A DNA stretch of 64,000 nucleotides from Candidatus Woesearchaeota archaeon. Lineage in GTDB: Archaea > Nanobdellota > Nanobdellia > Woesearchaeales > 21-14-0-10-32-9. The translations under genes were made by a program, and so were the position numbers. The notes beneath the pieces were generated by a model. It did no database searches and was not told where the DNA came from. It saw only the letters and a program-made list of their open reading frames with translations. Shown piece after piece: positions 2,130-43,189 of the stretch (positions are counted from its first letter, which is position 1; every line of letters starts with the position of its first letter). The DNA is taken from positions 5,491-69,490 of the forward strand of contig JAIPHP010000002.1 of NCBI GenBank assembly GCA_021735165.1. Reading direction: 5' to 3'.

Positions 2130-2261
2130 GGGCTCTTAGCTCAGTTCGGTAGAGCGCTCGGTTGGCATACAACGGTAAGCTGTGTTCAGAAATCATGACG
2201 CGGCCAGAAAAATTGTTGTCCAAAGATCGGGAGGCCGCGGGTTCAAATCCCGCAGAGTCCA
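2130..2261 (+). tRNA. tRNA-Ala(GGC) with a ~58-nt intron at the canonical 37/38 position
   Basis: Acceptor GGGCTCT/AGAGTCC carrying the G3:U70 Ala identity pair; D-arm GCTC..GAGC; anticodon stem CTCGG with loop TTGGCA, then an intron (2168-2225), then A-TCGGG; T-arm GCGGG-TTCAAAT-CCCGC; discriminator A. The exact splice junctions are uncertain. Confidence 0.7.
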
Positions 2262-5952: not shown

Positions 5953-8900
5953 TTAAACTATGTAGAATTGTTGGTATGTGTAGTGGTATGGACTGTATGA
6001 GAAGGCGTATTCTTGTTTTAGTGTTATTTGAGGGTATTGTTGGGCGTTGATGAGTTCTTGAATTGAGCCTCTGTTGCTGTGTATTGTTGAGCTTGTTGGT
6101 ATTAGTAGAGAGGTGTAGCCTAGTTTTTTTACCATGGTTTTTGAGTATTGTATAATTTTTTTGTATAGGTTGTCTGGTGATACGCTTGCAAGGATACTTG
6201 ATGAGGGTTGTATTGATGCTATTAAATAAGTGTTTCCTTGTTCTTGTATGGTTCGATAGATTACTCCTCCGCACGCATTTTGTTCTTCGTCAAGTATTAT
6301 CATTAGCCACATATCTGGTTGATTCCATAGTTTGTCGTCTATTGCAACGCATACTCCGAAGTTGAACATTGCTACTGAGTGCATTTTGTGTTTGGTTAGT
6401 ATGAATTTGAAGGGTGTGCCTGTTAGGCTTCGTCCTTCTTTTTTGAATTCGAATTTTGTCATCTCTTTTTGCATATTTTCGTATTGTTCTCCATATAATT
6501 GATTAAATATTTGTTGTACTAGGCTTTTATCTATTATGTTTGAAGAGTTTTGTATTAGGAATTGGTTTATTTGATCTACGTCGATGTTTTCTGGCCAGTT
6601 AATCTCTTGGATGTTGAATCCTTTTGAGTTGATGATTTCTATGATTTTGTTTTCTTTGTTGTTCATGTTGGATTTCCAGATTCCAAAGAGTGTTTTTGCG
6701 AATTGTCTGTAATCTTTATTTGTGTTTGTTAGTACTAGGAATTCGTTTTTGTATTTTTCTTGTGCTTTTGATAACAAGGATAATATCAAGTCATTTCTTA
6801 GTCTGTCTCCTATGAATTCTTTGTATTTCATCAGCGTTTCATGTTCACTGCTAAAGCTTGGTAGTTGGTTTCCTAGTTGTATGTTGTAGGAGTATATGTA
6901 TTTTAGGTATTCTTTTTGTTTATTTCTCAGGTCTCCGTGTAGAAAGTCTGTTAGTATGTGCATTCCGGTTTCTGCTGGGTCTATATGTATTGGTTTTTGG
7001 TTGATTTCTGTTACTGCTTCTACAAGGTTGTTCCATGATTGAGTGTTTACTTCTTCTTTAAGTACAAAGCCTCCTTTAGATATTCTTACTGTTAAGCCGC
7101 TTAGTTTATTTAGCTCTCCAGGTATGTCACTTTGTCTGTCTTGCCTGTTTTGTATTGCTCGTTTATATTGTTGTCTATCTACAGTTACTTCTGGTGCAAA
7201 TACAGAGTATAAGGTGCCTAGAAGTATGTTTTCGTCATAATCCTTGGTCAAATTGCCATCTAAAATTTCTTTTTTTAATTGTTTTACATCTTTGAAAAGT
7301 TTTTCGTAGTGTATATGTTTATCTTCATGAGTTCCTATATAGATGTTTCTGAATTCTGTGTAGATTTCTAGTAGGTAAGCTGGACTGTTTTCAAGGAATT
7401 GTTTTATTATTTCTGCATCATGGCTTATTGGTTTTTGTATGATGTTTTGTTTCAATCCTTCAAGAATTAGGTTATGTAATATGTCTGGTGCTTTTCTTTG
7501 TTTTTTACTTGTAATCCATACTAATAGTTCCAGGTCTTTTTCGTTGTATACTCCTTCGTATTTGGCAATTCCTGAATAACACTCTATGCATATGAATGAA
7601 GCAGGTCCTTGTGATTCTACTGTAGGAATTATTAGTAATGGAAATGTCAATATTTTAAATCGATTAAAATACGGTAGTAGAAGCTCGAATTTACTGAAAT
7701 TTTCCCATTCCGCTCCTTTTGTTTTTTGTAAGATGTGTATAAAATATTCTGTTATTTTTGGTAGATTTTCTTCGTTGATCATATATTTAATTGTAGGCAA
7801 ACCCTCACAAAAGACCACTTTTGTATGTTCTTTTGAAGCTTTGACTATTTGTAATATGTGCGGGAGGGTTTTTTCATTGATTATTTCTTTTATTGAAGAC
7901 AAACCGTGCTTGAAGACGTGGTTTGTTTGATCTCCTGTTAATTTGACCATCTCTACTAAATATGGCAAAGTTTTTTCATTAAGTGCGGGTTTTATTTCGA
8001 GCAAACCATCATTAAAGAAACTGTGTGTTTCACTTCTTATGACCTTAGCTATTTCTACTAAATAGGCCAAAGTTTTTTCAGTAAGCACATCTTTTATTTC
8101 AAGCAAACCATAAAAGAAAAAACCGTTTTTTTCGTCTCCAGCGGCTTTAGATATTTCTGCTAAATAAAATAGTTTTTTTTCGTTAAGTATGTCTTTTATT
8201 TTATGCAAACCCCAATATTTTAAGAAATTAATTGAGTTGAATTTTAAGTATTTGATTAGTTCAGCTAGTGATAGTCCTATGGATAGTATGTTATTTTCGT
8301 TAATAATATTTTTTATTTCACGAAACCCAAACATAAGGACATGTTTTGATAACTCCCCTTCGGCTTTGAATAATTCTGATAGTTGTAGTCCTATAGATAG
8401 TACGTTATTTTGGTTGATTTTGAATTTTACATAATAAAAACTCTTGAGTACAGATTCTGCTTGGTCTCCTGAGACTTTGGCTATTTTTACTAGTTGTAGT
8501 CCTATTGATAGTAAGTTATTTTCGTTTAGTATATCTCTTATTTTAGACAAACCCTTTTCCAAGACTAAGAGCCTATAGTCTCCAGCGGCTTTTACTATTT
8601 TTATTATGTCGGGGAAAGTTTTTTCATTAAGAATATTTTCTATTTGATATGAACAAAAACTTATGACCTCTCCTGCTTGATCTCCCGAGGATTTTACTAG
8701 TTTTACCATGTCAGGCAAAGTATTTTCATTAAGAATATCTACCAGTTCAGGCAAATAATGTTTAAAAACAGATTCTGTTTGATCAACCCCCAAGGCTTTT
8801 ACTAGTTCTACTATGTAGGGCAAAGTTTTTTCATTTAATATCTCCCTTATATCAGGCAAATAAAATTCTAATACATGTGAGTGAATCCACAAGGATTTAG

Positions 8901-17899: not shown

Positions 17900-18778
17900 T
17901 TGGATATTGTTTTTATGGTTATTTTTGATGGTGTTTCGTTGATTGTTGTTTTTGCTTTAGTTATCGCAAGTATTGTAGATATTAGGATTAGAGAAGTTCC
18001 TGATGTTTTAAGTTATTGTTTATTTGCGTTTGGAATTATTCATTCTCTTTTTTTATCAGCTTATTTTTATGATTATATGTTTTTTGTTAGTGGTATCTTT
18101 GGTTTTTTGTTCGCATTAGTTTTTAGTTTATTGTTTTATTATACTGGTCAATGGGGCGGTGGAGATGCTAAATTATTGATGGCTTTAGGTTTTTTATTTG
18201 GTGTTGATTTATTTAGATTGAGATTTTTTGATAATTTTTTTATTTCTTTTTTTATTTCTATTTTTTTAGTTGGTGCGTTATGGGGTTTAATTTGGAGTTT
18301 TTTTCTTGTTTTTAAGAATTTCAAGGTTTTTTTGAGAGGCTATGCTAATTTTACTAAAAGTTCTAAGTTGTATTCTTTTAAGAATTGGTTTTTAGGAGCA
18401 TTCGTTTTTTTTATTTTAATAGTGTTTTTTTTAGGATTGGGTTTGTTTTTTAAGGTGATTTTATGGTCTTTACTTTTGTTTTGTATGTTGTATTTTTATC
18501 TGTATTTTTTTTCCAAGGTCGTGGAGAAGTATTGTATGGTTAAAAGAATTCCTGTGAATAGTCTTGTTGAAGGAGATTGGATTGTTGGTAAAGTTAAGTT
18601 AAAGAATGGTAAATTTTTTTCTTCTAGTAAAACGGGTTTGGAGAAGAAGGATATTTTTTTATTGAAAAAAAATGTTGATTTTGTCGATGTTAGAGAAGGC
18701 GTTCCTTTTGTTCCTAGTTTTTTGTTTGCTTATTTGATTTGTTTGTTTTTTGGAGCGTGGCTTAGTCTGTTTTTTTAG
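17900..18778 (+). CDS. Type IV prepilin/preflagellin peptidase (A24 family, FlaK/PibD-like)
   Basis: Polytopic membrane protein carrying the two catalytic Asp motifs: VDIRIREVPD and the GxGD-type GGGDAKLL. Confidence 0.7.
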   Translation: MDIVFMVIFDGVSLIVVFALVIASIVDIRIREVPDVLSYCLFAFGIIHSLFLSAYFYDYMFFVSGIFGFLFALVFSLLFYYTGQWGGGDAKLLMALGFLFGVDLFRLRFFDNFFISFFISIFLVGALWGLIWSFFLVFKNFKVFLRGYANFTKSSKLYSFKNWFLGAFVFFILIVFFLGLGLFFKVILWSLLLFCMLYFYLYFFSKVVEKYCMVKRIPVNSLVEGDWIVGKVKLKNGKFFSSSKTGLEKKDIFLLKKNVDFVDVREGVPFVPSFLFAYLICLFFGAWLSLFF

Positions 18779-19272
18779 GCTGTTCTTGAAAGTGATTTTG
18801 TTAGGTAGTTCTCTTTTTCATCGTCTTCTTTTATTTCTTCTTCTTTTTTTGGTTGTGTTTTATTTTTTTGTTCTTCTAAATATTTCTTTTTATTTTCTTC
18901 ATCTTCTCTATTTTTGAAGAGTTGTTCTGATTCTGCGAGTTCTTGTTGGGTTGCTTGTTTTGGAGTCCATTCGAAATTTATATCGTCATTTTCATATCTT
19001 GGCAGTATGTTTATTGAGAATTGCGGGTTTTGCTGTCCTGCAGCTGTACCGTTTTGTATCAATATATTTGTTCCGTGGCATTGCATTGTTTCAAATAATA
19101 TCGATGATATTTTGTTTGCTGTTTGCAACATTTTTTTTATTAGATCTTTCGGCACTTCCTCTAATATCGTGTACTTTTCTTTAGGAACTATTATTGTATG
19201 TCCTTTCGTAATAGCATTTTGTGGTTGTATTACAAATAATTCTTCATCCTCTAATATTATTTCCGAATACAT
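18775..19272 (-). CDS. HIT-fold protein with a fully degenerate histidine triad (pseudo-HIT) and an acidic tail
   Basis: HIT-like N-terminus, but the triad position reads QFSINILPR where HxHxHxxPR is expected. The C-terminal tail is K/E-rich. Confidence 0.55.
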   Translation of the reverse strand: MYSEIILEDEELFVIQPQNAITKGHTIIVPKEKYTILEEVPKDLIKKMLQTANKISSILFETMQCHGTNILIQNGTAAGQQNPQFSINILPRYENDDINFEWTPKQATQQELAESEQLFKNREDEENKKKYLEEQKNKTQPKKEEEIKEDDEKENYLTKSLSRTA

Positions 19273-19276
19273 TTTT

Positions 19277-20050
19277 TTATTTGAATAATTCTGATATTTT
19301 ATCTAAATCTACTTCTTTTTCTATGGTTTCATCTTCTTTTATCGTTTCATCTTCTTTTGAATTTTCTTGTGATTCTGTTTCTTTGTTTTTTGATGTTACT
19401 TGTTCTTCTTTTTTGTTTTCTTCTTGAGTGTCGAGTTCATTTTCTTTTGTTTCAATCATGTCTTCATCGTTTTCTTTGAGGTTCTCGTCTTCTTTTTTAT
19501 CATCTGCATCTTGTGTTTCTTTGTTTTTTGATGTTACTTGTTTATTCTTTGTTTTTTCTTCTTCTGTCTGTGGTTTTTTTCCATATATTGATTCGTACAT
19601 TTTTTCATAAGATTCGGCCCATTGTTGATCAGGTATTTTTTCGAATTTGGGATTTAAAGGTACTTGATCATCATCATTTCTTGGTATTATGTGTATTATG
19701 AAATGTGGCGCTTTTTGTCCTGCAATTGCTCCGTTTGCTATGAATATGCTGGTTCCTTTACAATTTAAGCTTTCTAATATTAATTTTGAGACTTTTTGTA
19801 TTGTTTCTCCTAAATTTGCAACTATTTCTGATTTCATTTGAGGCATTACTTGAACGTGTTCTTTTGGTAGTAGAAGTATGTGTCCTTGTGATGCAGGATT
19901 TATATCTAATATTCCGTAGAAATCTTTGTCTTCATATATTTTTTTTGAGGGTATTTCTCCAGCTATTATTTTACAGAATATACAATTTTTTTTTTGGTAT
20001 TCTGCTATTTCTTGAGGGGTCATCTTTGAAAAGTCGGGTTGTTCACTCAT
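19277..20050 (-). CDS. HIT-family protein with an acidic low-complexity tail
   Basis: N-terminal FCKIIAGEIP...GHILLLPKEH followed by HFIIHIIPR, a partial triad in which the middle His is replaced by Ile. The C-terminal tail is long and E/K-rich. Confidence 0.6.
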   Translation of the reverse strand: MSEQPDFSKMTPQEIAEYQKKNCIFCKIIAGEIPSKKIYEDKDFYGILDINPASQGHILLLPKEHVQVMPQMKSEIVANLGETIQKVSKLILESLNCKGTSIFIANGAIAGQKAPHFIIHIIPRNDDDQVPLNPKFEKIPDQQWAESYEKMYESIYGKKPQTEEEKTKNKQVTSKNKETQDADDKKEDENLKENDEDMIETKENELDTQEENKKEEQVTSKNKETESQENSKEDETIKEDETIEKEVDLDKISELFK

Positions 20051-20127
20051 GATGTTGGTTTGTCAGTAATTTTATATAAACTTATTGTTCAATACTTATT
20101 TAAACTGCGGTTTTTTTCTGTTTTTTA

Positions 20128-21855
20128 ATGACAAATAATGATTTTGGGGAATTGAAAAATGTTTATTTTGAGGATTTGAAGTCTTTTTTGATAGATAATT
20201 CTCCTAATAAGGATGAAATTGCTAAATTTAAAGTGAGTTTGTGTAGGAAATATGGTTTAAAGTTTATCCCTACTGATATTGAGATTTTACTTAATGTTGA
20301 CAAAGAAGATTTGTCGTTTTTTAGACGTTTTTTAACTACTAAACCTGTTAGAACTGGTAGTGGTGTTGCAGTTATTGCAATCATGAGTGCTCCTTTTAGA
20401 TGTCCTCATGGTAAGTGTACTTATTGCCCTGGGGGACCAGATAGTTATTTTGGAAACGTTCCTCAGTCTTATACTGGTAATGAGCCGGCAACTATGCGAG
20501 GTATTAGAAATAATTATGATGCTTATTTACAAGTTATGAATCGTTTGGAGCAATATATAGCTATTGGCCAGAGCCCTGATAAAGTTGAATTAATAATTAT
20601 GGGGGGTACATTCCCTAGTTTTTCTAAGGAATATCAAGATGAATTTGTAAGAGATGCATTTTTAGCCATGAATGATTTTTCTGAACTGTTTTTTTCCGGG
20701 AAAGGTCATAATTTGGATGATTTAGATATTGAAAAATTTAAAGATTTTTTTTTGTTGCCAGGCAATATTAATGATAAGCATAGACAACATGAAATTCATA
20801 GAAAATTACTTGCTTTAAAGGAGAAAAAAAGATGTTCTTTGATTGAAGCGCAGAAGAAAAATGAGACAACAATCATTAGGTGTGTTGGTTTGACTATTGA
20901 AACAAAACCTGATTGGGGGTTGTTAGAACATGGTAATCAAATGTTGAAACTTGGTTGTACTAGAGTGGAATTAGGGGTTCAGACATTAAACGAAAATGTC
21001 TTGAATGAAGTACATAGAGGTCATAATTTGCAAGACACTAAAGACAGCATTAAGATCCTTAGAGATTTAGGTTTTAAACTGAATTTCCATATGATGCCCG
21101 GTCTTCCAGGCATTAGTAAAGAAGAAGATATTAGAACATTTAAGGAATTGTTTGAAAACTCGGATTATGTACCTGATATGTTAAAGGTCTATCCTACAAT
21201 GGTTATGCCTGGCACTAAGCTTTATTTAGATTTTAAGCAAGGCAAATACACACCTTTAAACACTGAAGATGCTTCAGATATTATTGCGGAATCTTGCAGA
21301 TTTGTTCCTAAGTATTGTAGGATTATGAGGGTGCAAAGAGATATTCCTGTTAAGTATAGTTTTGATGGTATTAAAAAGAATAATTTGCGTCAAATAGTAG
21401 AAGAAAAAATTAAGAAAAAAGGAATTGTTTTAAAAGATATACGTTCAAGAGAAATAGGAAAAAATCCTATTTTAGAGCCTGTAGATTTTGAAATTATTGA
21501 ATATTCTGCTTCTAAAGGAATTGAGTATTTTATTAGTTTGGTTGATGCTAATGATAAATTATTAGGATTTGTCAGATTAAGAATACCTTCTTGTTCTTTA
21601 AGAGATGAATTTAATGATAAAACAGCAATTATTAGAGAGTTGCATGTTTATGGAACCGCAATTGCTATTGGAGATGAAGCTGGTAATTCGCAACATAAAG
21701 GATTTGGTAAAAAACTAATGTCTAAAGCCGAAGAAATTGCTATTTCAAATAATAAAAATGAAATTTTGGTAATATCAGGTATTGGTGTAAGGGAATATTA
21801 TAGAAAGCTTGGATATGAATTAAAAGGCCCTTATATGTTCAAACAACTAGATTAG
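20128..21855 (+). CDS. elp3: Elp3-like tRNA uridine(34) acetyltransferase (radical SAM plus GNAT)
   Basis: Radical-SAM Cys cluster RCPHGKCTYCPGG and a C-terminal GNAT domain; 575 aa. Confidence 0.9.
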   Translation: MTNNDFGELKNVYFEDLKSFLIDNSPNKDEIAKFKVSLCRKYGLKFIPTDIEILLNVDKEDLSFFRRFLTTKPVRTGSGVAVIAIMSAPFRCPHGKCTYCPGGPDSYFGNVPQSYTGNEPATMRGIRNNYDAYLQVMNRLEQYIAIGQSPDKVELIIMGGTFPSFSKEYQDEFVRDAFLAMNDFSELFFSGKGHNLDDLDIEKFKDFFLLPGNINDKHRQHEIHRKLLALKEKKRCSLIEAQKKNETTIIRCVGLTIETKPDWGLLEHGNQMLKLGCTRVELGVQTLNENVLNEVHRGHNLQDTKDSIKILRDLGFKLNFHMMPGLPGISKEEDIRTFKELFENSDYVPDMLKVYPTMVMPGTKLYLDFKQGKYTPLNTEDASDIIAESCRFVPKYCRIMRVQRDIPVKYSFDGIKKNNLRQIVEEKIKKKGIVLKDIRSREIGKNPILEPVDFEIIEYSASKGIEYFISLVDANDKLLGFVRLRIPSCSLRDEFNDKTAIIRELHVYGTAIAIGDEAGNSQHKGFGKKLMSKAEEIAISNNKNEILVISGIGVREYYRKLGYELKGPYMFKQLD

Positions 21856-32898: not shown

Positions 32899-35800
32899 TC
32901 AGTTAGAAGTTTCTAAAACTTCAAACTCCCAAGAATCTTCGATAAATACTTCATCGTATTGAAAACTTCCATAAACCCTGTATTTTCCAGGGGATTCCAC
33001 AGAAACATTTTTTAAATTCCATCCGTAATATTTTCCAATATCTAGTTTTATTAAATTATTTGCAGAAATATTTACTTTTTCATTTGTAACAATGCGAATA
33101 TTTCTCCAATGGTTTTCAATTTTATTCTGTAAAGCTAAAGTTAAGATTCCTCGTACATCAACATCTCCTGAATTAACTATTTTTGATTGAGGTCTTGGAT
33201 TTCCAAGGGGGACTGAGATATCTTCACAATTATAACAACCTGTATGTTGGGAATCGTGTTGATACATTGGCCAGTCCATTTCTACATCCCTAAAAGGAGA
33301 ATCTAAATTAAAAACCTGAATAAAAGTTTTACGAATGTTCCAATTTACAGAACTAGATATTAATTCATTAAAATTATCTCCTTCAAGATCAAAAACAGAA
33401 TACATACTGATTTCTGGATAAACAATTTTCTTTTCAATAGAGCTGTCTGAGAAATTTGATAAATAAATAAGACTTAAACCTCTAAAAGTAAAATATTTTC
33501 CTATAAACCCATAAATATTGTTCTCAATTTTTCCAAAAAGAACGGGAACTGATTTTACTGGTTCTCCTCCAGAAAAAACAACATTTCCATTTCTATCTAA
33601 GATATAGTTCCAAAAACCTTTTTTTATAGAAATGTTAAGATAATCTCTTTGCTTAAATAAAGAAAGACTTGAAAGATGTCCTGAAGAAACAAATTGAGGC
33701 CAACCTGTTTTTATAGACCCATTTTCTTCGAGGACATAAACTCCATTTCCAAAAACGTTTGGGCGATTCATTTTATTAGTATAAAAAATTATTTCATCAT
33801 ATCCATCTGAATCAACATCACCTATAACTCCAGGTTCAAGAGCAAAACCATTTACATTAACAGGAAATCCTTCAACTAGAGAGCCATCAAAATTAAAAGC
33901 AAAAATTCTTCCCTCGCAATGCCAATTTTCTAGAGTAAACACTCCTTCGTCAAAAACATTTCTTGTTGAAGGCACAACAACCTCGTATTCTGGATCATCG
34001 TCTAAATTAGCAATAAGAGAGCTTGTCTCATATCCGCCAAGTATACCGCAAGAGAAAGAACCATTACCAAACTGTTTATTATACACAATTTTTGGCCATC
34101 CTGGAAGAAAATTTCCATCTAAGTCAAGAACTGCCAATCTCAAAGCGCTTTCTGGAACTCCTTCAAATTCAAAAGAATCATAAACTTTGAGTATTTCAAT
34201 ATTTCCATCTCCATTAAGATCTTTTAAAACAATTAAACTGTTTGGCTGAGAAGAAATCTCTAAAGGAATCTTTCTAATAAGGCTCCCAGATAAATCATAG
34301 ACAAATAAATTATAAATTCCATTTACGACAATTTCTTTCAAACCATCATTATTAAAATCTATAACTGAGGGGGGGCCTATATTTCCTCCCGGAAGTCCAC
34401 CGTTAGATCCTGGAGGGCTATATACATCAACCTCGATTGGAAAGCCTTCTAAACGAGAGCCATCTTCTTTAAATGCATAGACTTTTAGAGGATTTCCCGC
34501 GTAATAAAACAAAATTTCTTTAGATCCATCTCCTTCCAAATCTTCTATAACTGGTTCAACTTTTCCAGGCCAGTAATAAAAATCAAAATTTTGCTCTGTA
34601 TTATCAAGAACTCTAAAATCTTCTGTAGTTGATGTTACTTCCAAATTATTTTCAGAGGATTTGATAAAAACACTCTCATTTCCAAAAGTGTAAAAGGAAA
34701 AAGAATTTCTATTATTGTTAGGGATAAAAGATAAAAAAGTTTTATCTTTAAAAAGCATAAGAGAATCCTGTGAATTTCCTCCAAAAGTTCCTCCTTGCCA
34801 ATCTAATTCTTTCGGCCAGCCTTCTTTCAAAGAAGAGCTAATAAATAGAATAGGGGTGCTTTCGGTAAAGGTTTCTCCAAAAAAATTAAAATTAAAATTA
34901 ATTATATAAAAACCCTCCTGATCTAGAAGAGATGTGTCCCAAGAAAAAAAAGTTTTATTTATTTGAGTTATTCCTACTGCATTTATAATTTGTGAGTTGT
35001 CCATTGAAAATACTTCGAAAGAAGATAATTCGTAATAGGGATTTAAAATGTTAAGAAAAATTGGAATAGTCTCCCCGAACCTATAAACTCCAGGCTCTTT
35101 AGGAGAAATTATTTCAAGGTTGTTTATGGAAAAAATATTCATATCATTAGAAACAATTTGATTTTCTTTGTAAATATTAATCTGTAAAGAATAGTCTCCA
35201 TCCATAAGACGGGTAGTATCAAATTCAGGACATAAAACTCCTTCAATAATCTCTTCTGTTCCCTCACAGATTAATTTTGGTCCACTCAAAGAAGATTCTT
35301 TAGAATAAGTGACTTTGTAGGAATCAAAATTTCCCTTTGCAGTACCTCTAACTTCCAAAATTCCTTCCGAAAAATAGGGAAATTGATCTAAAAAAGCTAA
35401 TGCGCTTTCATCATTTGTATTTAAAAGAGATTCAAAAATATCAATTCTTCCACTACCTTGAATTGTTCTTATTTGATTCAAAGAAACAGCATTATTTCTT
35501 AAAGAGCCTTTCATGTCGAAAGCATTCCAAGTAGGATGTGCTTGTTTTAACAAAGCAACTGCTCCAGAAATAATTGGAGTAGCCATAGAAGTCCCTGCTA
35601 ATTGGACATGATCTTCATCTAAGCAGGGATAATAATATTCGTTTTCTCCTGGAGGAAATATAGAATCATATCTTGCAGCACAAATAATTGCTCCAGGAGC
35701 AACGATATCGGGTTTTATTAACGCCATAATGTTTCCTTCTTCATTTTCCCAAAGAACAGGGCCTCTAGAACTAAAAGAAGTTACCTGATCTACACGAGGA

Positions 35801-37140
35801 TTAAAATCCCAGTAACTTCCATCATAATTTTTCTTATACGTTGCACCAACTGTTATTGCTTTCCTTGCATTTCCAGGACTCATAATGCTTCGTTCATTTG
35901 GACCAGAATTTCCTGAAGCTATGACTGCAACGACTCCTGCATCTACCACATTATCAATTGCAGAACTCATTGGATCATCTGGATTGCCAGAACCTCCCAA
36001 ACTTAAACTAATAACATCCAATTTATCTGAAAAGTCTCCATCTTCATTAGGATCTAAACTTCTTTCAATTGCAGAGATAACATTTCCTAAAGAACCCCCT
36101 CCTAATGAATTCAAAACTTTGTATGCATAAATTTTTGCATCAGGAGCAACACCTTTCAAAACCCCATTTCCAGCAGCAGTTGAAGCAACATGTGTTCCGT
36201 GACCCTGATCATCTATTGGATCTCCATCATCGTTTACAAAATCATAACCCCCAACAACTTTTTCACAAGTTTCGTCTAAAAATTCTTCTGTCGTACAACT
36301 TCCTAAATCTCTGTGAGTATAATCCACTCCTGTATCAATTATCCCAATAATTACATCTTTACCTGTCAAACAATTTTCTTCTTCCAAACAAGGATTAAGA
36401 TTCTCATCTAGTTCCCAAACATCGTCAGCATTGATTAAGGGGATAGAATCCATTAAAAAGGCTGTTACTTCGTAATCAGGATAGATTCTTTTCACACCTT
36501 CAATATTTTTTATTTCTTGAATTTCTGAAGGTAAAAGATCTAAACTTATTCCATTAAACACTTTTGTATAACTTGATTTTATTTCATTATTTGTTTTTTG
36601 CAAAATTTCTGATTTTGTTTGTTCATGTTTTTCTTCCAAATCTAATTTGTAATTTTCTAATCTATCCTCAATGTTTTCTTCTAAAAAAGAATTTTCATTT
36701 TCTTTTGCAAGTTTTTTTAATCTAGAGTATTCTTTAGCCAAAGGTTCTTCTTCAAATTCAACAATATATCCGGAATATTTTGGAGTTTCAAAATCAGAAA
36801 CAGAATCTCCTGTTAAACCTTTCTCCGGAGGGTCTGTTAATTTTATTTGTTCTCCAACAGAGTAAAAATCTTTTAAAGTTGCAAGAGAGATTTTTAGAGT
36901 TTCTGATGTTGCGTATTCATGGTTTTGTGTATTTGTTGGGTTTGTGGCTTGATTTGTTTGTTGTTGATTGTTTTGCTGCGTGTCTTCTTGTTCGAATTCT
37001 ATGTCCATGTTTTGCATTTCTAAGTATTGTGTTGTGCAACTAGTTAGAATAAGAATTGTCAATACAAGTAATGCAGTTATTATTTTGCTTTTATTTGTTT
37101 GTTTTCCTTTCATTTTCCTGCTTGGATTGCAGTTATACAA
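32899..37140 (-). CDS. Large secreted or surface subtilisin-like (S8) serine protease with FG-GAP/beta-propeller repeats
   Basis: Asp/His/Ser triad motifs IGIIDTGVDYTHRDLG, HGTHVASTAAG and GTSMATPIISGAVALL. Multiple DxDxDG/FG-GAP-like repeats are present (DVDSDGYDEIIF, DFNNDGLKEIVV, DLNGDGNIEIL). The N-terminal signal peptide ends in the lipobox-like LTSC. Confidence 0.85.
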   Translation of the reverse strand: MYNCNPSRKMKGKQTNKSKIITALLVLTILILTSCTTQYLEMQNMDIEFEQEDTQQNNQQQTNQATNPTNTQNHEYATSETLKISLATLKDFYSVGEQIKLTDPPEKGLTGDSVSDFETPKYSGYIVEFEEEPLAKEYSRLKKLAKENENSFLEENIEDRLENYKLDLEEKHEQTKSEILQKTNNEIKSSYTKVFNGISLDLLPSEIQEIKNIEGVKRIYPDYEVTAFLMDSIPLINADDVWELDENLNPCLEEENCLTGKDVIIGIIDTGVDYTHRDLGSCTTEEFLDETCEKVVGGYDFVNDDGDPIDDQGHGTHVASTAAGNGVLKGVAPDAKIYAYKVLNSLGGGSLGNVISAIERSLDPNEDGDFSDKLDVISLSLGGSGNPDDPMSSAIDNVVDAGVVAVIASGNSGPNERSIMSPGNARKAITVGATYKKNYDGSYWDFNPRVDQVTSFSSRGPVLWENEEGNIMALIKPDIVAPGAIICAARYDSIFPPGENEYYYPCLDEDHVQLAGTSMATPIISGAVALLKQAHPTWNAFDMKGSLRNNAVSLNQIRTIQGSGRIDIFESLLNTNDESALAFLDQFPYFSEGILEVRGTAKGNFDSYKVTYSKESSLSGPKLICEGTEEIIEGVLCPEFDTTRLMDGDYSLQINIYKENQIVSNDMNIFSINNLEIISPKEPGVYRFGETIPIFLNILNPYYELSSFEVFSMDNSQIINAVGITQINKTFFSWDTSLLDQEGFYIINFNFNFFGETFTESTPILFISSSLKEGWPKELDWQGGTFGGNSQDSLMLFKDKTFLSFIPNNNRNSFSFYTFGNESVFIKSSENNLEVTSTTEDFRVLDNTEQNFDFYYWPGKVEPVIEDLEGDGSKEILFYYAGNPLKVYAFKEDGSRLEGFPIEVDVYSPPGSNGGLPGGNIGPPSVIDFNNDGLKEIVVNGIYNLFVYDLSGSLIRKIPLEISSQPNSLIVLKDLNGDGNIEILKVYDSFEFEGVPESALRLAVLDLDGNFLPGWPKIVYNKQFGNGSFSCGILGGYETSSLIANLDDDPEYEVVVPSTRNVFDEGVFTLENWHCEGRIFAFNFDGSLVEGFPVNVNGFALEPGVIGDVDSDGYDEIIFYTNKMNRPNVFGNGVYVLEENGSIKTGWPQFVSSGHLSSLSLFKQRDYLNISIKKGFWNYILDRNGNVVFSGGEPVKSVPVLFGKIENNIYGFIGKYFTFRGLSLIYLSNFSDSSIEKKIVYPEISMYSVFDLEGDNFNELISSSVNWNIRKTFIQVFNLDSPFRDVEMDWPMYQHDSQHTGCYNCEDISVPLGNPRPQSKIVNSGDVDVRGILTLALQNKIENHWRNIRIVTNEKVNISANNLIKLDIGKYYGWNLKNVSVESPGKYRVYGSFQYDEVFIEDSWEFEVLETSN

Positions 37141-38203: not shown

Positions 38204-38324
38204 TGCGGGGGAAGGGATTCGAACCCTCGAACACACTAAGTGACAGGATGTCTCATACACGTATGAGTGTCATTTTTGGTGAAGCTTAAGTCCTGCGCAT
38301 TTGACCAGGCTTTGCTACCCCCGC
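38204..38324 (-). tRNA. tRNA-Leu(UAA) with a ~35-nt intron
   Basis: The reverse complement gives GCGGGGG-TA-GCAAAGCCTGGTCAAATGC-G-CAGGA-CTTAAG-[intron]-A-TCCTG, then a long variable arm, then GAGGG-TTCGAAT-CCCTT-CCCCCGC-A. Confidence 0.75.
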
Positions 38325-42054: not shown

Positions 42055-42163
42055 AGCCTCCGGCGAGAATTGAACTCGCGACCTCTACCTTTTTGCTAGC
42101 TGCGTTCAGATATCCTGGCCGCTGCCGTACCAAGGTAGCGCTCTACCGCTGAGCTACGGAGGC
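42055..42163 (-). tRNA. tRNA-Thr(GGU) with a ~37-nt intron
   Basis: The reverse complement gives GCCTCCG-TA-GCTC-AGCGGTA-GAGC-G-CTACC-TTGGTA-[intron]-A-GGTAG-AGGTC-GCGAG-TTCAATT-CTCGC-CGGAGGC-T. Confidence 0.7.
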
Positions 42164-43083: not shown

Positions 43084-43189
43084 GGGCCCGTAGCTTAGCC
43101 TGGTTGGAGCGCTGGTCTTATATGACTACGTTTCACGCGAATAGCTCGAAGAGAGCCAGTGGTCGGGAGTTCAAATCTCCCCGGGCCCA
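43084..43189 (+). tRNA. tRNA-Ile(UAU) (probable) with a ~31-nt intron
   Basis: GGGCCCG acceptor; D-arm GCTT/GAGC; anticodon stem CTGGT with loop CTTATA, then an intron (43123-43153), then A-GCCAG; T-arm GGGAG-TTCAAAT-CTCCC. Anticodon TAT sits at 43119-43121, assuming the canonical intron position. Confidence 0.55.

Follow-up and report, generated by a model that had tools for sequence, protein, structure and literature searches.

A tandem pair of HIT-fold genes without the nucleophilic histidine in DPANN archaea and its candidate role as a binding module

Results

Two adjacent HIT-fold genes without the catalytic histidine

The window analyzed in this work is a stretch of 64,000 nucleotides from a Candidatus Woesearchaeota archaeon (assembly GCA_021735165.1, contig JAIPHP010000002.1, positions 5,491 to 69,490 of the forward strand), and it carries two neighbouring minus-strand open reading frames (ORFs), here called gene A and gene B, whose products have the HIT fold and lack the histidine that acts as the nucleophile of HIT enzymes. 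A previous sequence-only reading of the window had taken the two for adjacent HIT paralogues, and this was borne out, as the ORFs, the Pfam matches and the public gene calls agree, an identical public Logan contig carries identical calls, and the two products are 30% identical (BLASTP E 1e-24). The Pfam HIT domain PF01230 (cut-off 21.5 bits) covers residues 31-125 of A (E 2.8e-20, 73.2 bits) and residues 2-94 of B (E 3.8e-13, 50.3 bits), and the product of gene B is 100% identical to the database protein P0121, which is named 'HIT family protein [Candidatus Woesearchaeota archaeon]' at NCBI.

19277..20050, minus strand: gene A, HIT-fold protein of 257 aa with an incomplete triad (H116-x-I118-x-H120); the stop codon 19277-19279 is included
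18775..19272, minus strand: gene B, HIT-fold protein of 165 aa with no triad histidine (Q84, S86, N88); the stop codon 18775-18777 is included

Researchers have found that the second histidine of the HIT triad is strictly conserved and, with the third, carries out catalysis via a covalent nucleotidyl-phosphohistidyl intermediate, and that the first is a non-catalytic zinc ligand acting alongside CxxC and a histidine near residue 50 (PMC6354057). When A was aligned with HIT proteins of the Protein Data Bank (PDB), its segment H116-F-I118-I-H120 fell on HAHVH (3l7x), HVHFH (3ksv) and HYHMH (1y23). The segments of both A and B align exactly on the HxHxH of these three structures and the triad is not located elsewhere, so that the partial triad of A, with Ile for the middle histidine, and the QFSIN of B, with no histidine at all, are confirmed as first described. 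Because A is without exactly the second triad histidine, it should, like B, be inactive by the canonical HIT mechanism.

The features of the folded part of A are as follows.

19988..20050, minus strand: N-terminal extension of A, residues 1-21, before the CxxC; clade-specific and conserved in A homologues (homologue consensus ..NMSPEEIAELQKxN)
19679..19987, minus strand: HIT core of A, residues 22-124, which retains C23-x-x-C26, D49, I50, H57, the G111-Q112 motif and the first and third triad histidines
19691..19705, minus strand: triad segment of A, H116-F-I118-I-H120, with Ile at the middle (nucleophile) position, from PDB alignments

A retains the zinc-site residues and the nucleoside contacts. 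In a residue-by-residue comparison with human HINT1, made on the sequences, the zinc-site residues C23, C26, H57 and H116 are all present, the nucleoside contacts F19, I22, D43 and I44 of HINT1 have retained equivalents, and so do C17/C20, H51, H110 and H114. At the position of HINT1 Ser107, A has Lys, and Lys or Arg occurs there in 23 of 25 A copies across the loci described below. The alignment of B. subtilis Hit (1y23) to A begins at chain residue 5, at the CxxC, and the equivalent of the N-terminal extension in the fusion protein P0005 was modelled as two helices, with a predicted local distance difference test (pLDDT) of 91-96 in the first two 10-residue blocks.

Gene B is a far more degenerate protein.

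18991..19269, minus strand: HIT core of B, residues 2-94, without CxxC and the base-binding N-terminus; Pro17 stands at the ribose-binding Asp, and H25 and the G79-Q80 motif are retained
19009..19023, minus strand: triad segment of B, Q84-F-S86-I-N88; the family profile k-f-s-i-n aligns to H-Y-H-M-H of 1y23

With no triad histidine, no CxxC and Pro for the ribose-binding Asp (HINT1 D43), a replacement that is invariant in B of the window lineage, B proves to be the fully degenerate pseudo-HIT protein that had been suspected. Its fold is kept: in the AlphaFold2 (AF2) model of B the HIT core has a pLDDT of 78-90 and superposes on 3o0m and FHIT at about 1.8-2.0 Å over 94-99 aligned columns (Foldseek). 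The family of B has 45-70% identity, 24 invariant positions and a near-constant length (alignment A1), which argues that B is not decaying, and the triad histidines are absent from all 20 of its closest homologues. Across the loci, all 12 B copies with CxxC keep the first histidine, and of the 11 that have no CxxC, 8 have lost it, a co-retention that fits a role of this histidine as a zinc ligand.

The middle histidine is missing throughout the clade

A search with gene A gave 516 database matches, of which the best 120 were examined and 115 could be parsed at the triad. All 115 have CxxC and H-x-[M/I/L]-x-H, with Met in 93, Ile in 17 and Leu in 5. Met as a metal ligand at the nucleophile position was considered and rejected, since Ile or Leu is found there in 22 of the 115 homologues. 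A scan of a genome collection gave 36 loci, which together with the window make 37; of the 36, 28 bear DPANN labels (Woesearchaeota, Nanoarchaeota/Nanoarchaeia, Pacearchaeota, Nanobdellota), five read 'uncultured Methanosarcinales archaeon' and three read 'archaeon'. The Methanosarcinales labels (L003, L005, L012, L020 and L024) look doubtful, as these have the gene content and synteny of Woesearchaeota loci. The middle histidine is absent in 58 of the 59 HIT ORFs of the 37 loci, the exception being a truncated ORF of 131 aa.

About 13 of the loci have a single HIT gene, whose product of 176-238 aa contains CxxC and, in most cases, H-x-[L/S/C/F]-x-N. Because these single-copy relatives are also without the middle histidine, the loss of the nucleophile predates the duplication that gave A and B. 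This does not agree with the first interpretation of the pair, namely a duplication followed by the loss of activity in one copy, which then became a regulator of an active partner: A has also lost the second histidine, the loss is family-wide, and it is older than the duplication. An exhaustive HMMER search with the B profile reached 3869 representatives of clusters at 50% identity when E <= 1e-3 was required; the number was 1324 for E <= 1e-10 and 127 for E <= 1e-30. Among 147 new representatives that were examined, a histidine at the middle position occurs only in the first domain of the fusion P0161, which has an intact HAHIH. The third histidine is replaced by Asn, Asp, Ser or Glu in B-type and single-copy forms. 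No canonical HIT gene was found within the 64-kb window. This HIT clade is sizeable and under selection, not a decaying gene.

Some members combine features of the two types. P0085 has an A-type core (HFMIH, CxxC and the N-terminal extension) joined to a B-type tail (...DDYISRQMRRIP), and in many single-copy forms (L017-L036) the CxxC is preceded by a helical N-terminal extension that can reach about 65 residues, most of these forms ending in ...R-I-P.

Conserved tandem order, natural fusions and a pseudo-dimer model

The same degenerate pair was looked for in relatives, and in about 23 of the 37 loci gene A is followed immediately by gene B on the same strand, with a stop/start overlap of 4 nt in 12 of these. 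Such an overlap is typical of translational coupling. In the window the stop of A and the start of B are separated by a gap of 4 nt, and the reading frames differ. The possibility that A and B are a single gene broken by a frameshift was rejected, because the frames are different, stop and start are clean, the public calls agree, and the split is kept in the approximately 23 tandem loci.

The two domains also occur naturally in a single chain. Two-HIT fusions of 290-395 aa account for at least 13 of the top 150 representatives, in addition to P0005, P0006, P0014 and P0015 found in the first search, and the natural A-B fusions that can be named are P0005, P0006, P0014, P0015, P0153, P0156, P0161, P0163, P0172, P0183, P0193, P0214, P0222 and P0246. 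When the fusion model was compared with solved structures, 207 residues aligned with 6k5z and 213 with 1gup, both GalT-type, whereas single HIT chains aligned over 99-147 residues only; the far longer GalT-type alignments mean that both domains of the fusion were superposed at once. The fusion is thus modelled, in one monomer model, as a GalT-like pseudo-dimer. In the alignment used for this model the B-family rows fell on domain 1 and domain 2 drew on few sequences, and domain 2 was still modelled with high confidence. The GalT-like two-domain arrangement reproduces the HIT homodimer, and from the fusion model, the fusions and the synteny we infer that A and B most likely act as a dimer.

Both tails end in conserved peptides

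The sequence-only reading had also pointed to acidic tails of 70-100 aa, E/K-rich and of low complexity, as unusual for HINT or Fhit proteins. Unusual they are, and their linkers are indeed E/K-rich, but low complexity does not extend throughout, because the ends are strongly conserved, and the tail of A, with about 133 aa (residues 125-257), is longer than stated. Each tail is a linker, predicted to be disordered, with a conserved peptide motif at its terminus, rather than acidic low complexity alone.

19313..19678, minus strand: linker of A, residues 125-246, mostly E/K/D-rich, of unconserved sequence; disorder is predicted by analogy with homologues
19329..19451 and 19467..19589, no strand assigned: direct duplication inside the linker of A, 123 nt each, 71% identical, 138 nt start-to-start
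19280..19312, minus strand: A-type C-terminal motif, V247-D-L249-D-K-I252-S253-E-L255-F256-K257-COOH, conserved in homologues
18814..18990, minus strand: post-core region of B, residues 95-153, with an LEWTP segment (W102 invariant), a conserved K136, a predicted long helix and a short disordered stretch
18778..18813, minus strand: B-type C-terminal motif, E154-N155-Y156-L-T-K-S160-L161-S-R163-T-A165-COOH; N155 and Y156 are fully conserved and S160 and L161 almost so (alignment A1)

The stretch that follows the triad-PR motif has anything from 54 to 272 aa in A homologues, with no conservation of sequence, and the inter-domain linker of P0005 has low pLDDT. Tandem repeats of 18 nt are present in both tails of the window genes, those in the A linker lying around the 123-nt duplication, and the linkers seem to grow through local duplication. 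The end of the A tail behaves quite differently from its linker: the motif [VIP]-D-L-D-[KD]-I-[AS]-x-[LM]-F closes 113 of the 120 A homologues, and in 70 of these 113 exactly one residue follows the LF, most commonly Gly (29). In the AF2 model of B, residues 109-139 form a helix and residues 141-154 have pLDDT < 50; the motif that follows, [D/E]-[N/D]-Y-[L/M]-x-[K/R]-x-L-x-R-[I/L/M/T/V]-[P/A], is near-universal among the 147 representatives. The B-type motif, or a plainer ...R-I-P, is also what terminates the fusions and the single-copy forms. Flexible, variable linkers with a conserved peptide at the tip are how tethered docking motifs are classically built.

Several known types of terminal peptide were compared with these motifs and set aside. 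The SepF-binding C-terminal peptide of archaeal FtsZ has a nearly invariant GID motif at its centre (PMC8178401), and an FtsZ-type SepF ligand was rejected, as GID is absent from the termini of both A and B and the resemblance is limited to L-D-D-[F/I]; SepF lies two genes from the pair solely in close relatives of the window. The PIP-box (PCNA-binding) reading of the A-type motif was likewise rejected: compared with the general PIP-box consensus, it lacks the Gln of position 1, position 7 is Leu/Met rather than aromatic, and position 2 is an unvarying Asp. A membrane-targeting helix at the terminus of A was rejected because motif and linker are acidic. The terminus of B is basic and amphipathic and may contact membrane or nucleic acid.

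Genomic neighbourhoods

In the window the A/B pair is flanked by a convergent A24-type (prepilin/preflagellin) peptidase gene (17900-18778, plus strand) and a divergent Elp3 gene (20128-21855, plus strand). The stop region of gene B overlaps the end of the peptidase gene by 4 nt (18775-18778), and the divergent intergenic region between A and Elp3 has 77 nt (20051-20127). Direct reading of this region gave one further element.

20071..20080, minus strand: TATA-like TTTATATAAA, 21-30 nt 5' of the gene A ATG

The position of this element upstream of A suggests a leaderless A-B transcript. The convergent adjacency of HIT and A24 peptidase genes recurs in 22 of the 37 loci, and the neighbourhood in the window further includes SepF, which like Elp3 is divergent, PTH2, an MTS methyltransferase and a UPP-synthase-like gene.

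Single-copy HIT genes have other neighbours. Six loci have the gene for aEF-1beta (PF00736, E 1e-17 to 1e-23) directly upstream and on the same strand, two of them with a 4-nt overlap, and seven more have it within 5 kb. The HIT proteins encoded beside aEF-1beta have 31-53% mutual identity, so the adjacency has survived considerable divergence. L031 (4548-6471) has the order aIF2alpha, aEF-1beta, HIT, and in L025 (5531-6423) and L021 (1514-2525) the aEF-1beta and HIT genes overlap or nearly abut. In the Nanoarchaeota locus L006 (935-5267) the order is ArgRS, HIT-A, HIT-B and an inositol-monophosphatase-family gene, with 4-nt overlaps among the last three, and aEF1A and S10 follow about 4 kb downstream (8060-9707). 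These neighbourhoods hint at a link with the translation apparatus; with so many translation genes packed into small DPANN genomes, the hint is a weak one.

The window has a GC content of 0.28-0.35 (about 30%). It contains seven tRNA genes by Rfam, of which ARAGORN detected only the three intron-less ones; the other four are 106-132 nt long (2130-2261, plus strand; 38204-38324, minus strand; 42055-42163, minus strand; 43084-43189, plus strand), which suggests intron-containing archaeal tRNAs. Two very large ORFs, both on the minus strand, encode 1170 aa (5953-9465) and 1413 aa (32899-37140).

Discussion

By fold and sequence, A and B belong to the HIT superfamily and are nearest to its zinc-binding Hint branch. 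Hint-branch proteins (1y23 of B. subtilis, 3l7x or SMU.412c of S. mutans, 3o0m of M. smegmatis and human HINT1) have the same fold as A and B and are the best sequence matches of A (E 2e-24 to 1e-21); like A, they have the CxxC, histidine and first-triad-histidine zinc ligands and the nucleoside-holding Asp and hydrophobic residues, and a ...PRY..D..W segment after the triad is common to both groups. On the other hand, A and B are without the nucleophile, B is also without the first and third histidines, the zinc site and the N-terminal segment, and the present clade adds a helical N-terminal extension and long tails that end in motifs. The zinc site of the branch (CxxC, a histidine near residue 50 and the first triad histidine) can be recognized in the sequence of A and is missing from B, and the catalytic HIT motif H-phi-H-phi-H-phi-phi is found in neither. 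The NCBIfam model HinT NF045834 scores 70.7 bits for A and 44.3 bits for B against a cut-off of 130, and NF007965 gives 37.4 bits against 206. The HxHxH motif of the Fhit branch is absent and the similarity to FHIT is weak (E 1.5e-6).

Two HIT-like repeats in one body are the property of the GalT branch, and the present clade has this property; GalT-type proteins (1gup, the GalT-like 1z84, the ADP-glucose phosphorylase 2h39, and 6k5z) resemble it in their two-repeat body. GalT enzymes have their catalytic histidine in an HxHxQ motif, and neither A nor B has a histidine at the second position. Furthermore, GalT is a single chain, whereas the halves are usually separate genes here and none has the nucleophile; identity to this clade is 12-17%, and GalT has no tail motifs. 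The CWF19-like/CwfJ proteins of the spliceosome (8ro1, 6id0, 3jb9) likewise have a two-lobed HIT-like body and sit in an RNA-processing assembly, but they are eukaryotic, have another domain context and share no tail motifs; CwfJ_C_1 (PF04677) scores 19.2 bits on A, below its cut-off of 21. The avian HINTW (ASW/PKCI-W) is, like B, a HIT paralogue without the catalytic motif and is thought to act by dimerising; it was predicted to be without the key catalytic domain and hypothesised to block HINTZ in a dominant-negative manner (PMC4053838). The partner proposed for HINTW is active, whereas the partner A is inactive as well, the pair is ancient and widespread, and the tails have motifs. What separates this clade from GalT, HINTW and the CWF19-like proteins is that both halves are nucleophile-less, that they occur split, fused and single-copy across the archaeal superphylum, and that both carry tail peptides. 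In the literature we found no description of this clade, of a HIT enzyme without the middle histidine or of a link between HIT and aEF-1beta, and nothing that bore specifically on HIT pseudoenzymes.

On balance, we think it probable that A and B are the obligate partners in a non-catalytic HIT pseudo-dimer of DPANN archaea, which would serve as a binding or adaptor module whose tail peptides recruit partners. The observations behind this reading are the fold, the triad substitutions with their age and family-wide spread, the conservation of the pair, the fusions and the conservation of the motifs, and the absence of the nucleophile and its breadth across the clade are solid and somewhat surprising. 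From these we infer heterodimerisation, the lack of catalysis, ligand binding, partner recruitment and a link of the dimer to translation. According to this reading, the pseudo-dimer would have abandoned covalent phosphohistidine chemistry and turned into a binding module. A, with its zinc site and nucleoside contacts kept and Met, Ile or Leu at the nucleophile position, may bind an adenosine- or guanosine-like ligand without turnover, and B, which has lost its triad, its zinc site and the greater part of its pocket, would complete the structure in the way that the second GalT repeat does. The flexible charged tails end in DLDKIxxLF-COOH (A) and NYLxKxLxR[I/T][P/A]-COOH (B) and would most likely serve to dock other proteins, and the recruited partners might come from the translation apparatus. 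Some of our results weigh against such a module. The heterodimer is deduced from fusions, synteny and one monomer model; A still has two histidines and the conserved Lys/Arg at the Ser107 position, so a non-canonical activity could exist; the A-type motif is missing from most fusions and hence dispensable in some lineages; the terminal helices were modelled at low confidence (pLDDT about 50-57); and the neighbours in the window lineage are Elp3, SepF and the A24 peptidase, not aEF-1beta.

Two alternatives would preserve an enzyme in this system. We consider it rather unlikely that A, or the A/B dimer with B as its second half, is an enzyme with a non-canonical mechanism in which water or phosphate attacks directly with the help of the first and third histidines and the Lys/Arg. 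The retained nucleoside-binding residues, zinc site and two of three histidines of A and the Lys/Arg in 23 of 25 A copies would suit such an enzyme, and the GalT-type two-repeat HIT body does work with a single active site; but the position that contacts the alpha-phosphate is occupied by the hydrophobic and chemically inert Met, Ile or Leu, the third histidine is replaced too in B-type and single-copy forms, and we know of no HIT-superfamily enzyme that functions without the middle histidine. The idea that A is a working or weak nucleotide hydrolase and B a recently decayed regulator or scaffold, as in prozymes or the proposed HINTW-HINTZ pair, seems very unlikely to us. It would account for the much greater degeneration of B and for the adjacency and probable co-translation of the genes, and HINTW-HINTZ offers a precedent (PMC4053838). 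Nevertheless, a dead paralogue that regulates needs a competent partner, and the adjacent A is itself without the nucleophile, as are 115 of 115 readable homologues; the single-copy relatives place the loss before the duplication; and B is conserved rather than decaying.

The remaining alternatives concern the tails. The tail of aP1, a protein of the archaeal ribosomal stalk, has the same architecture as that of A, a charged flexible linker with a short terminal hydrophobic motif: in P. horikoshii aP1 (3wy9_C) it is E/K-rich and ends in A-L100-A-G-L103-S104-A-L106-F107-G108-COOH, and the A terminus L249-D-K-I252-S253-E-L255-F256-K257 is in register with it as L-x-x-[L/I]-S-x-L-F-x-COOH. As reported, L100, L103, S104, L106, F107 and the terminal carboxylate of aP1 contact aEF1A, and L103S, L106S and F107S abolish binding (PMC4267659). 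As a special case of the adaptor module, the A tail could therefore mimic the stalk tail, bind stalk partners such as aEF1A and aEF2 and either tether the HIT dimer to these or compete with the stalk, and the same spacing, the same small residue, the single trailing residue (often Gly) and the aEF-1beta genes adjoining HIT in single-copy lineages speak for it. We regard this as doubtful, and our estimate was lowered because a PDB profile search with the 26-residue A tails found no stalk protein, only snurportin at an insignificant E of about 5. The near-invariant Asp of D-L-D has no counterpart in aP1, no profile similarity is detectable, the folded domain is unrelated, the lineages beside aEF-1beta have the B-type and not the A-type tail, and the A-type motif is mostly dropped in fusion proteins. 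An A-tail profile of 42 residues searched against 5.8 billion proteins gave nothing at E <= 10, the motif being too short for the search tool, and no P1/P0 stalk or FtsZ gene was found in the window or the 37 loci. An equally doubtful idea is that the A-type motif is no external handle and instead straps onto the body of B or of A/B, stabilising or regulating the dimer. Most A-B fusions have no A-type motif, have a short linker and all keep the B-type end, and a strap made redundant by covalent linkage would explain that absence; P0006, moreover, retains an A-type PDLDKIAG exactly at the domain junction. However, 54-272 residues make a very long linker for reaching an adjacent subunit, and the absence of the motif in fusions could stem from how these arose. 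It is scarcely credible that the tails are functionless by-products of replication slippage in an AT-rich genome. The low GC content, the 123-nt duplication and 18-nt repeats of the A linker and the unconstrained length and sequence of the linkers speak for such slippage, but the last 9-12 residues are strongly conserved although the linkers share nothing, and in the B tail the length hardly varies and some internal positions are conserved. This explanation thus fails for the termini; it could apply to the linkers alone.

The most far-reaching form of the adaptor module is a dead two-subunit reader of an adenylate-like ligand, plugged into translation via both tails, one of which would mimic the stalk and capture translational GTPases. 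We consider this version quite improbable; if true, the reader would be a hitherto unknown factor that assists archaeal translation in minimal-genome organisms. Regardless of the partners, the two conserved terminal peptides are handles by which these may be discovered. HIT proteins are usually viewed as enzymes defined by their nucleophilic histidine, and this clade is without that histidine and yet under selection, as all homologues examined lack it save one fusion domain and one truncated ORF. The label 'HIT family protein' in databases therefore invites the wrong inference of a nucleotide hydrolase in reconstructions of DPANN metabolism. The case would add a HIT example to the known pseudoenzymes, one in which both subunits of the dimer are inactive, and the fact that the clade was kept, duplicated and sometimes re-fused in very small genomes points to an important non-enzymatic function.

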